From an uncultured Candidatus Saccharibacteria bacterium (lineage in GTDB: Bacteria > Patescibacteriota > Minisyncoccia > Phycocordibacterales > JACOZG01), in contig CAYWTW010000001.1 in assembly GCA_964461325.1 (NCBI GenBank), positions 1 to 29,568 of the forward strand: a stretch of 29,568 bases of DNA, given 5' to 3'. Of this stretch, positions 1 through 12,973 are shown one piece after another; within the stretch, counting starts at the first letter, position 1; the number at the start of each line of letters is the position of its first letter. The notes under the pieces are model-generated. The model did no database searches. It was not told where the DNA came from and saw only the letters and a program-made list of their open reading frames with translations. Both the position numbers and the translations under genes were made by a program.

Positions 1-144
1 CTCAATCAGCCCAGTTTTACTGCACAACTGTGTCTAGTATATGGGGTACCTGCCATGTCCTGGTCTAGCGCGGGTTTTGTCGCAAGATAAATACCGCCGA
101 ATAAAATTCAGGAATGAGAGGACATAGGCCTTCACGGGCAGTAA

Positions 145-228
145 CCCTCAAGTTCCGGTGCCGCGGACGGGAACGGACAATATCTCGACTCGGACGGTAA
201 CCGCGTCAACGTCGGCAACTTCGATGCG
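145..228 (+). repeat. DGR template-repeat (TR)-like fragment, 3'-truncated
   Basis: Frame 1 reads ...ADGNGQYLDSDGNRVNVGNFDA with four AAC codons (172, 199, 208, 217). This resembles CPR DGR template repeats (recalled pattern, not searched). It abuts an RT fragment at ~228. No matching VR is visible in the window. Confidence 0.65.
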
Positions 229-437
229 GGTATGTTGCTTTGCCGCACCATCGAATTTTGCGTTCCAAAACCAAGAGACGAATGTTCAGAAAATTGGGCG
301 AAAAAATCAAACAACGAGAAAACGGGTTAATTAATGAGGATAATTTTAAGGCCACGCTCGATTCTTATTTGGGCGTTTTGTGCCATTGTAATAGTTACCG
401 TTTAGCCGAAAATATACGGAATTCGGGGTGGGGTTGA
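228..437 (+). pseudogene. C-terminal fragment of a DGR-type reverse transcriptase
   Basis: From 228 the frame reads GYVALPHHRILRSKTKRRMFRKL...ATLDSYLGVLCHCNSYRLAENI, matching the (FL)GY motif and the thumb-region SYLG..H motif of DGR/group II-like RTs. The YxDD core and N-terminus are absent, and the in-frame sequence upstream of 228 is not RT-like. Confidence 0.75.
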
Positions 438-462
438 CCCTGTCACTCGCGAGTGACAGGGT
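437..462. repeat. 26-bp perfect palindrome (ACCCTGTCACTCGCGAGTGACAGGGT), REP-like
   Basis: Self reverse-complementary by inspection. It overlaps direct copies of GGGTTGACC at 431-439 and 459-467. Confidence 0.9.
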
Positions 463-490
463 TGACCGATTTTCCGCCGTGCGCTAGGAT
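462..490 (+). promoter_or_regulatory. sigma70-like promoter for the rpsS block
   Basis: TTGACC (462-467), a 17-bp spacer, then TAGGAT (485-490); the rpsS ATG is 9 nt downstream. Confidence 0.6.
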
Positions 491-499
491 GTGCGGGCT

Positions 500-850
500 A
501 TGACTCGATCATTGCGCAAGGGGCCGTTCATCGACCCCCGCCTGTTAAAAAAGATTGCCGGTCGCAAACCGGCCGAGGCGGGTGTTGTTAAAACTTGGTC
601 TCGAGATTCGCAGATTAGCCCGGAAATGGTCGGGTTTACGTTCGGCGTGCACAATGGTCGCGAGCACAAGCCGGTTTTAGTGACGGAAGAAATGGTCGGG
701 CATCGCTTAGGAGAATTCTCCCTCACGCGCAAGTTCGTGCGTCATGGCGGTAAGATGCAGAAGGAGCTCGAACAAAAGAAGCGCGAGGCCGAAATCAACG
801 CCGCTAAAACAGCGCGCGAGGCCGGCACCGGCGCCGCCGCCAAGGCCTAA
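500..850 (+). CDS. rpsS: 30S ribosomal protein S19 with C-terminal extension
   Basis: [12 protein letters not shown]...KTWSR...VHNG...[14 protein letters not shown] at 500 preferred over GTG at 491. Confidence 0.97.
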
Positions 851-864
851 ACGATTTGACAATC

Positions 865-1248
865 ATGAAAGCCCTGCTTAGCAATTACCGTCAGTCTCCG
901 CGCAAAGTCCGTTTGATGGCCGATCTCGTGCGCGGACGTTCGCTCGAGACGGCTGACCGCCTCCTCCAGTTTACGGTTAAGCGGGCCGCCGCGCCGTTGC
1001 GCAAATTGCTGCGGTCGGCCGCCGCGAATGCCGGTCCCGAGGCCGCGGCCGCCACCAACCCGCCGTCGGAGCTGTTTGTGAAGAATATTACCGTCAATTC
1101 CGGTTTGGTTTATCGGCGGTTCCATCCCGGCGCTCATGGTCGAGCTTACCCCATCCACAAGAAGACGAGCCACGTGGAAATTGAGTTGGGACGCCGGCCG
1201 ATCAAAGAAACCGCGGTTAAAATCAAGCCGAAAAAAGTTAAAAAATAA
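865..1248 (+). CDS. rplV: 50S ribosomal protein L22
   Basis: RQSPRKVRLMADLVRG...RAYPIHKKTSHVEIEL; ATG at 865. Confidence 0.96.
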   Translation: MKALLSNYRQSPRKVRLMADLVRGRSLETADRLLQFTVKRAAAPLRKLLRSAAANAGPEAAAATNPPSELFVKNITVNSGLVYRRFHPGAHGRAYPIHKKTSHVEIELGRRPIKETAVKIKPKKVKK

Positions 1249-11125: not shown

Positions 11126-12973
11126 TTAAACCTCGATTAACACAGGCAGAACGATCGGGCGGCTTTTGGTTTTCTGGAACAAGAAGCGGCCAATGTCTTC
11201 GCGGACGATGTTTTTTACATAATCGAAGTTGATGGGGTGCATTTTGCTCGTTGCCTCCTCGATTTTTTTCTTGGTCAGCTGGCGGACGGAGCGGAGCAAG
11301 TCTTGCGACTCTTTCAGGTAGACGAAGCCGCGGGAGATGATGTCGGGCGATTTAATGACTTGGCCGGTCTGGATATTGACGAGGGCGATAATCACGAAGA
11401 TGCCTTCTTGAGCAAGCATAACGCGGTCGCGAACCACCACTTCCTTGACGTTGTTTTGGCCTAAGCCGCCAACCATCACGAGATCTTTGGGCGCTGTTTC
11501 TGGTCGACTCGCGATTCGTTCGCCGTCGGCGCTAATCTCCACGACCATGCCGTTGTCGGGGACGATGATGTTTTGCTCGGGCATGCCGAGCTCCATCGCC
11601 AGATCGGCGTGGACCCGCAGTTTTTGATGCCAGCCGTGAATGGGGATGAAGAATTTCGGTTTGATTTTGCGATGTAGCCATTCGATTTCGCCACGATTGC
11701 CGTGTCCGGAAGAATGGATGTAAACCTCGGAAGTGCGGTAACTGATAATTTTGGCCCCCTGGCGCGCGATGTTGTCTTTAAGTTTTTGGACCATGATCTC
11801 GTTGCCTGGAATGATCGATGAAGAGAGCAGAACCGTGTCGCCTTTTTTGAAGCGCAAATATTTGTGAGTTTTGGTGGCGATGCGCATTAACGCCGCGAAT
11901 TCTTCTCCTTGGGCGCCGGTGGCCAGAATGACCATTTTGTTCTCCGGGTAATTGGCCGCTTCTTGGACCGAGATGATGGTACCCTTTTTAACTTTGAGTA
12001 AGCCGGCCTTTTCCGCGACCTCCACGTTGGTTTTCATGCTTCGGCCTTCGACGACGATTTTGCGACCAAACTCTTCAACGAAGCCGATGATTTTAATCAT
12101 CCGCTCCAGTTGGGAGGCAAAAGTGCCGATAAATAAGCGGCCCTGGATGTTTTTTATAATCTCGCGGATGTTTTTGTGGGTTTCTCGCTCGGGAATGGAA
12201 AATCCGGGATTTTCGATATTAGTGGAATCGGTCATGAGCAGGAGAGTGGGCTCGCGGTCGAAGATGCCGTAGCGCTTTTCTTCTTCGGCTGTCGGCTTGC
12301 CATTGACTCCGTCGAGGTCAAGCTTGAAGTCGCCCGGATTGACAATCATTCCATATTTGGTGTCGATGATGACGCCGAAAGAGTCAGGAATGGTGTGCGT
12401 CACGCCAAAAAACCTGACGGAAATTTCTCCGAGCTTTAACTTGCTGTCATTTTCAACGATTACCAAATTAAGAGGCGATAGATGCGGAAATTCATCCATT
12501 CGTTTTTTTATGAAAAGCGAAGTGAGGTTGCGAGTATAGAGCGGGGGATTGCCGATTTTCGGCATGATGTAGGGAATGGCGCCGGTGTGGTCGAGGTGGC
12601 CGTGAGTGATAATCACGCCGCGAATCCGATCCTTGTTTTGTTCGAGGTAGGTGGCGTCCGGAATGATGTAATCGATGCCTGGCGTGTTTTCCGTCGGGAA
12701 AGCCAGACCCATGTCGATCACGATGATGTCATTATCAATTTCGATCGCCGTCATGTTTTTGCCGATCTCCTCCACACCGCCGAGGGGAATGATTCGAATC
12801 ACCCCCGGCTCGATTTTCGGCACGCGTTTAATGTTTTTGGGCCCAGTTCCGGCGCCCAGATGGCTGGGCCGGCGCGGTGGCGGGCGGCGGCGTGAGCGTG
12901 ACGGACCGCGGCCCCGCGGTGAGCGCGGACGATTGTCGCCCGGCTGGCTGTCGTTATTGGTAGTAGGTTTCAT
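11126..12973 (-). CDS. rnj: ribonuclease J
   Basis: IIPLGGVEEIGKNM, ITHGHLDHTG metallo-beta-lactamase motif, GDFK, DSTN, IHSSGHG, PIHG, RPIVLPVLIEV. Confidence 0.96.
   Translation of the reverse strand: MKPTTNNDSQPGDNRPRSPRGRGPSRSRRRPPPRRPSHLGAGTGPKNIKRVPKIEPGVIRIIPLGGVEEIGKNMTAIEIDNDIIVIDMGLAFPTENTPGIDYIIPDATYLEQNKDRIRGVIITHGHLDHTGAIPYIMPKIGNPPLYTRNLTSLFIKKRMDEFPHLSPLNLVIVENDSKLKLGEISVRFFGVTHTIPDSFGVIIDTKYGMIVNPGDFKLDLDGVNGKPTAEEEKRYGIFDREPTLLLMTDSTNIENPGFSIPERETHKNIREIIKNIQGRLFIGTFASQLERMIKIIGFVEEFGRKIVVEGRSMKTNVEVAEKAGLLKVKKGTIISVQEAANYPENKMVILATGAQGEEFAALMRIATKTHKYLRFKKGDTVLLSSSIIPGNEIMVQKLKDNIARQGAKIISYRTSEVYIHSSGHGNRGEIEWLHRKIKPKFFIPIHGWHQKLRVHADLAMELGMPEQNIIVPDNGMVVEISADGERIASRPETAPKDLVMVGGLGQNNVKEVVVRDRVMLAQEGIFVIIALVNIQTGQVIKSPDIISRGFVYLKESQDLLRSVRQLTKKKIEEATSKMHPINFDYVKNIVREDIGRFLFQKTKSRPIVLPVLIEV

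Follow-up and report, generated by a model that had tools for sequence, protein, structure and literature searches.

Remnant of a diversity-generating retroelement, probably inactivated by a deletion, upstream of rpsS in an uncultured Candidatus Saccharibacteria bacterium

Diversity-generating retroelements and their inactivated forms

The prototype diversity-generating retroelement (DGR), that of the Bordetella phage BPP-1, is ordered mtd-avd-TR-brt and includes: (i) a template repeat (TR) that is rich in AAC, (ii) Avd and (iii) a reverse transcriptase (RT) with an I/LGxxxSQ motif. Priming of cDNA synthesis in the Bordetella DGR takes place downstream of the TR, from where synthesis enters the TR at its 3' end. 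The element from which the locus described here would have descended had the same component set. It is of a type that differs from the BPP-1 DGR in that avd lies between the TR and the RT gene on the opposite strand, the element is cellular and not phage-borne, and the target protein has no Pfam match; the copy itself is very probably dead.

In one survey, 90% of the CPR DGRs are reported to have architecture B3, TR-(avd)-RT (Wu et al. 2018, PMC5758913). The leader, TR and RT tail of the present locus are homologous to, and collinear with, cassettes of this kind in the related genomes G027, G059, G005, G020 and G018, and the genome that carries the locus (G000) itself holds two intact B3 cassettes, on contigs C41 and C9. 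By contrast, the copy studied here is without avd, the catalytic part of the RT and the TR 3' end, and neither a VR nor a target gene is found for it in the assembly.

Inactivated DGRs are common: Wu et al. (2018, PMC5758913) set aside more than half of their candidate DGRs because of premature stops, truncation or a poor match of TR to VR, and the present copy is one more such case. In Treponema denticola, isolates retain target genes without the RT and TR (PMC4891356). The mutagenic core was lost by ordinary decay there, as it is here, whereas the present locus keeps a TR stub and an RT tail, has lost the target and has a breakpoint that is mapped to a few bases.

The locus at the 5' end of the window

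The window, which is the whole stretch of 29,568 nucleotides that was analysed, covers contig C1 from its start to 29.6 kb. The genome comprises 583 kb in 46 contigs, and its assembly graph was built with 55-mers (k=55). The relatives of its ribosomal proteins put it among the Patescibacteria/CPR, close to lineages of Parcubacteria type. The features at its 5' end are as follows.

1-55, minus strand: left inverted repeat, of the TG...CA type, at the outer end of an IS3-family element, from its identity to C12:2633-2579
56-182, plus strand: conserved non-coding leader that precedes the TR in intact DGRs of the same type, from alignment to relatives
183-227, plus strand: first 45 nt of a TR, the three variable codons of which are all AAC, from near-identity to the starts of the TRs at loci L004 and L005
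226-233, no strand: putative deletion junction, where TR identity ends and RT identity starts, GC/GGGT being assignable to either side
228-437, plus strand: last 69 codons and stop of a DGR-type RT (thumb/C-terminal region) without the catalytic core, from phmmer and tblastn
437-462, no strand: perfect 26-nt palindrome directly 3' of the RT stop, with GGGTTGACC on both sides as direct repeats, from a self reverse-complement match
462-490, plus strand: promoter-like TTGACC-N17-TAGGAT, 9 nt before the rpsS ATG
500-850, plus strand: open reading frame of rpsS (ribosomal protein S19), the first gene of the ribosomal cluster in the window

AAC triplets lie at 172-174, 199-201, 208-210 and 217-219. 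The frame that opens at 145 reads ...GAADGNGQYLDSDGNRVNVGNFDA (given also as ...GQYLDSDGNRVNVGNFDA), while the frame that opens at 201 reads ...CGYVALPHHRILRSKTKRRMFRK...SYLGVLCHCNSYRLAENIRNSGWG*, with the stop at 435-437. From 228, the peptide GYVALPHHRILRSKTKRRMFRK...SYLGVLCHCNSYRLAENIRNSGWG is in a frame other than the AAC-rich reading, and the two readings meet at 227/228. A first-pass annotation had described an AAC-rich segment that runs into a different-frame peptide at about 227-228, and a check of the sequence returned its coordinates, frames and stop as they had been claimed.

Leader and template repeat stub

A DNA search of 60 related genomes with window positions 1-490 returned three long matches: 97-227 at 83% identity to G027:C40 (L004, E 7e-34), 99-225 at 80% to G059:C3 (L005, E 8e-27) and 98-224 at 73% to G005:C8 (L006, E 1.5e-14). 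All three end at 224-227. Shorter matches in related genomes (84-91%) are limited to 182-230, and every match ends at 224-230. In all three of the long matches, window positions 97-182 align directly upstream of the TR, and a weaker alignment of the leader continues back to about 64. The stub of the TR is 45 nt long and represents about 37% of a 118-125-nt repeat.

In G059 and G005, the long match is placed between the target gene and an opposite-strand avd-like gene, which is followed by the RT gene. When the TR is compared to the VR of the target gene, 21 of 34 mismatches (L005) and 18 of 27 mismatches (L006) are at TR adenines, both counts being taken over whole local alignments with ends in unrelated flanks. 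Because the mismatches are mostly at its own adenines, the repeat that the window matches is the TR of a TR/VR pair. The earlier assignment of 145-228 to a TR is thus borne out by the long homology to the TR and leader of three relatives and by the template (AAC) state of the variable codons, and the homology to the TR together with its specific leader (73-83% over about 130 nt in three relatives) marks the segment as a DGR remnant. Two details of that assignment are revised. The AAC codons at 199, 208 and 217 do belong to the TR, but the one at 172 is part of the conserved leader that precedes it, the TR proper beginning near 183. Similarly, 145 had been taken as the left limit, but alignment to relatives extends the DGR-derived sequence to at least 97 and probably to about 64.

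The leader includes a near-invariant block at window positions 99-127 (GAATAAAATTCAG..GAGAGGA.ATAG), which is noted in several genera some 60-80 nt upstream of the TR (L004, L005, L006). The block may act as a promoter or belong to a structured portion of the DGR RNA.

Reverse transcriptase tail

The right half of the locus is related to the C-terminus of DGR-type RTs. A phmmer search of 5.8 billion proteins with the 228-437 peptide returned nine RVT_1 proteins (E 8e-15 to 3e-8, 51-57% identity), with E 8e-15 to 3e-13 for RVT_1 proteins of 310-355 aa. In tblastn, the corresponding tails of the G020 and G027 RTs were 51% identical to it; the best-matching RT tails in the family are those of G020, G018, G027 and G005. 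The named relatives are from Nomurabacteria, Saccharibacteria, other Patescibacteria and one Nanoarchaeia genome. The tail aligns solely to the last ~70 residues of RTs of 310-355 aa, starting at a conserved G-Y-V-x-x-P-H-H-R, and the full-length RTs to which it aligns all carry the DGR-typical G-N-L-T-S-Q. In relatives, such RTs adjoin a bAvd-like gene and TR/VR pairs with mismatches at TR adenines. The peptide had been attributed to a DGR RT at first pass, and its alignment to the C-terminus of G-N-L-T-S-Q enzymes in this genomic setting confirms the attribution; the order and strand of the TR stub and RT tail are those of G027:C40.

Pfam returned nothing for the two peptides, the tail (69-78 residues) among them, or for the 5' open frame. 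The RVT_1 homology had to come from phmmer and tblastn because the tail is too short for the Pfam RVT_1 model. Of the components of a functional DGR RT, the catalytic motifs ([I/L/V]GxxxSQ and YxDD) are not present in the tail, which aligns downstream of all of them.

Deletion junction and lost interval

Identity to the TR ends after ...TTCGATGC (227), and identity to the RT starts from GGG TAT GTT, which encodes the G-Y-V of the RT motif. The breakpoint is placed only within 226-233 because short strings are common to both sides. In G027:C40, the points that match window positions 227 and 228 are 503 and 1849, which are collinear and 1345 nt apart; in the C41 cassette of the same genome as the window, the gap between the two halves is likewise collinear and about 1270 nt. 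The gene order of the intact relatives and of the intact DGRs of G000 is target/VR, TR, avd (minus strand) and RT. Thus, the interval that is missing by comparison to intact relatives includes the 3' two-thirds of the TR, the whole of the opposite-strand avd gene and the first ~265 codons of the RT. It had been proposed that one deletion removed the TR 3' end and the RT catalytic core; both are absent, and the flanking halves are collinear with G027:C40 at the 1345-nt spacing. The proposal is amended in one respect, as avd, situated between the TR and the RT on the other strand, was probably removed as well. A microhomology mechanism was considered for the breakpoint, in that TCGAT and GGGT occur on both sides in G027; this genome is a relative and not the ancestor, and no mechanism is claimed.

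Window positions 56-437 are, with high confidence, a dead DGR of the TR-(avd)-RT architecture typical of CPR bacteria, collapsed by a deletion of about 1.3 kb. The ancestor would have had a complete cassette (a target gene with VR, the leader and TR, avd on the opposite strand and an RT gene directed into the promoter region of rpsS). The deletion would then have joined TR nucleotide ~45 to RT codon ~265 and, in doing so, taken the TR 3' end (with the cDNA priming and homing signal), all of avd and all catalytic RT motifs. Either before or after this deletion, an IS3-family element would have landed some 42 nt 5' of the recognisable leader; the target gene is missing from the assembly. What is left is predicted to be non-functional, with a template stub that could not be reverse-transcribed and an RT tail that could not polymerise, while the terminator-like palindrome and the rpsS promoter downstream presumably still work. 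One point that speaks against a dead element is the reading frame of the tail, which remains open over 69 codons.

Partner parts and other DGRs of the genome

The other parts of the element were sought throughout the G000 assembly. No VR was found for 182-227, even when each adenine could match any base and as many as 6 other substitutions were tolerated; weak blastn matches on C37 and C27 (query 1-500) were rejected as VRs, the mismatches not being adenine-specific and the matches being ascribed to chance. No homologue of the target proteins of relatives was detected in the assembly. The expectation that a VR-bearing target gene might remain elsewhere in the genome is therefore not upheld, neither VR nor target homologue being found in the assembly. 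No avd is present in window positions 1-500, and tblastn of G000 with three Avd queries gave matches on C41, C9 and C18 only; the avd and RT core of this copy are not found elsewhere in the assembly, the C18 match being to a stub.

Two apparently intact B3-type DGRs are present in the genome. The cassette at C41:2726-5354 (L047) has a bAvd-like gene on the opposite strand, a 335-aa RVT_1 RT and a 118-nt TR/VR block with 25 mismatches, all of which are, by eye, at TR adenines. The cassette at C9:211-1839 (L050) has an RT and avd, and no VR was found for it in the assembly. The TRs of both are unrelated to the stub at 183-227. As the stub is without its 3' end, it is not expected to be a usable template. 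Thus, the idea that an intact DGR could act on the locus in trans is implausible.

A second collapsed DGR is located at C18:12332-14166 (L048). It has a target gene with a VR (~13480-13305) and a full TR (~12980-12810), and 20 of 31 TR/VR mismatches are at TR adenines, counted over a local alignment that runs into unrelated flanks. Of avd, only the C-terminal half (12573-12773, plus strand) is left, and it abuts the last ~100 RT codons (12646-12332, minus strand), the divergent 5' ends of avd and the RT gene having been deleted.

The genome thereby offers a natural series of two live cassettes, one collapsed cassette with a TR and a diversified VR, and one with neither. The series could serve to show how fast target genes disappear or become frozen after loss of the mutator. 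The window locus reveals no new mechanism; it is a clean example, mapped to a few bases, of the way in which a reduced CPR genome loses a DGR. Annotation should not label short RT tails or AAC-rich stubs of this kind as DGRs or RT genes.

Flanking sequences

Window positions 1-55 are 100% identical to C12:2633-2579 of the same genome. The C12 element (L049, 2579-3773) is 1195 bp long, with TG...CA ends, terminal inverted repeats that match at 14 of 15 positions, an orfA that matches HTH_Tnp_1 and an orfB that matches rve (E 1e-22). The assignment to the IS3 family (HTH orfA, DDE (rve) orfB and TG...CA inverted repeats) is made on this copy; the window differs in holding just the terminal 55 nt of the element. 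The contig begins here because window positions 1-55 are a repeat, and its start exactly one 55-mer inside the repeat places the junction of the insertion sequence and the DGR leader at 55/56. The IS3 end cuts the locus about 42 nt upstream of the recognisable leader (97). The genome has the 1195-bp element at two or more sites, and no obvious target-site duplication surrounds the C12 copy.

On the 3' side, palindromes related to that at 437-462 are noted on contigs C20, C23, C24 and C2 of the same genome. The palindrome is absent from the corresponding locus of G001, a genome of the same genus, where a single TTGACC forms the -35 box; for this reason, it may be a small inserted repeat element or, alternatively, a terminator. 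An Rfam search of window positions 1-600 gave sub-threshold noise on the palindrome only. TTGACC-N17-TAGGAT is the sole promoter-like site in window positions 1-900. G001 keeps both hexamers and the 17-nt spacing, and the -10 box is inside a block (479-520) that is 100% identical.

The gene rplB is not upstream of rpsS in G000 and is instead at the end of another contig, C27; it is also on another contig in G001, is absent within 8.8 kb in G016 and is not upstream of rpsS in most of the family. Insertion of a DGR between rplB and rpsS was rejected as a simple explanation of the break, given this placement of rplB in G000, G001 and G016. The break, common in the family, is attributed to rearrangement or a long insertion. 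More widely, most of the family and many Paceibacteria have a broken or enlarged rplB-rpsS junction (L015-L044, L056-L135), with gaps of 100 to more than 1600 nt, or no rplB within 1.5 kb, and with varied inserted content.

The same locus in related genomes and competing readings

Ribosomal protein genes have been noted inside five CPR DGRs (Wu et al. 2018, PMC5758913). Of the relatives, G001 has a stub of an RT tail just upstream of the same promoter and rpsS, and this stub is the positional orthologue of the tail in the window. It is 71% identical over window positions 301-439 (blastn) and is alignable from about 268. In the G001 stub, the frame meets a stop that precedes the G000 stop by 13 codons, and a 1-nt indel lies close to the end; the left edge differs from that of G000, and there is no piece of the TR. 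Four-fold degenerate sites of rpsS, rplV and rpsC are 47% identical between G000 and G001. At 71% versus 47%, the tails have not drifted freely since the two genomes split. The simplest reading is that a complete DGR was present at the locus in the common ancestor and would have been lost late and independently in each lineage.

Beside the RT stub of G001, and inverted relative to it, is a gene for a 296-aa protein (L046:8864-9751, minus strand), the N-terminus of which resembles the DGR target of G005 (pairwise E 5e-8) and the C-terminus of which is weakly VR-like. From this likeness, the gene may be a frozen former target. G000 has no homologue of it.

In G016, of another genus, an intact DGR ends 25 nt before rpsS. 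Because its RT is of the C9 type, this DGR may be an independent arrival. The intact DGR of G027, which has the closest TR match, was rejected as an orthologous locus; a gene for a dockerin-repeat protein is instead upstream of rpsS in that genome.

The collapse is ordinary gene decay. RT-core deletions are noted in two independent cases in G000, and a third, differently bounded, is at the same locus in G001. It is possible, and on balance doubtful, that such deletions are a recurrent and perhaps favoured route to permanent DGR silencing, in which the lost RT would have been gated by a (GA)n tract (described below) and the tail and leader kept as a regulatory region of the rpsS operon.

The tail identity of 71% at a locus where the neutral sites of adjacent genes are 47% identical fits late independent deletions and would also fit some retained function. 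The tail could, for example, code for a small protein. Alternatively, the DNA of the tail could, together with the palindrome and promoter, regulate an rpsS operon that has been cut off from rplB; the open frame of the tail in G000, the promoter-like site directly after it and the lack of the normal gene upstream of rpsS are in keeping with such a role. However, conservation after the G001 stop is similar to that before it, which argues against shared selection on a protein, as do the stop itself and the 1-nt indel, while the mix of synonymous and non-synonymous change fits an RT that worked for most of the divergence time. The palindrome, moreover, is absent from G001. Retention of the stub for a function is thus considered improbable, and late, independent loss of a working DGR is preferred.

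The junction could also be an artefact of assembly, such that the true genome has an intact DGR of which about 1.3 kb was skipped. The locus is close (170 nt) to a contig end that coincides with the boundary of a repeat, the assembly is in 46 contigs at k=55, and a search of metagenome and genome collections for the exact 36-nt junction found no other public assembly that has it. A de Bruijn chimera, however, requires a k-mer in common, and 97-227 and 228-437 each occur only once in the assembly; there is also no orphan contig with the missing avd or RT core among the tblastn matches described above. The sister species G001, assembled independently, also has only a tail stub at this position, and the differently placed RT-core deletion on C18 demonstrates that such collapses occur in G000. 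A chimeric junction is very unlikely on these grounds, and the deletion is taken as real.

A fusion of a target gene to the RT, in which the AAC-rich piece would be the 3' end of the target gene (a VR), would account for the match of 183-225 to the VRs of relatives at 84-87%. This similarity is limited to the repeat, whereas the similarity to TRs extends 85 nt upstream into the TR-specific leader. The leader reads GAADGNGQ, like the GAMDGVGQ that precedes the C41 TR of the same genome and unlike the sequence before the C41 VR. In addition, the three variable codons all read AAC, which is also the state of the TRs; at these codons, L005 and L006 carry substitutions in their VRs. It is, therefore, scarcely credible that the piece is a VR, and its origin from a TR is retained.

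That the tail stems from a non-DGR RT (retron, group II intron or defence-associated) beside an unrelated AAC-rich sequence is extremely improbable: one database match is labelled at source as 'Retron-type reverse transcriptase' and the peptide alone has no Pfam match, but all aligned full-length relatives carry G-N-L-T-S-Q, the closest RTs in related genomes adjoin bAvd-like genes and TR/VR pairs, and the adjoining sequence is independently identified as the TR of the same DGR type.

A (GA)n tract in related RT genes

The DGR RT genes nearest to the window tail (L137-L140, L166-L217) have a perfect (GA)10-35 tract at a fixed position just before G-N-L-T-S-Q. The pattern is noted in 52 loci of CPR and DPANN genomes, and the literature library that was searched gave no paper on a (GA)n tract in DGR RT genes. 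Both halves of the gene are complete and open in 37 of the loci (median 203 and 155 codons), and in 31 of these 37 they are out of frame (20 at +1 and 11 at +2), the remaining 6 being in frame. The RT genes of G018 and G020 have flanks that are nearly identical and of equal length, with an in-frame (GA)14 in the former and an out-of-frame (GA)15 in the latter. From these sequences, the tract looks like a slipped-strand on/off switch.
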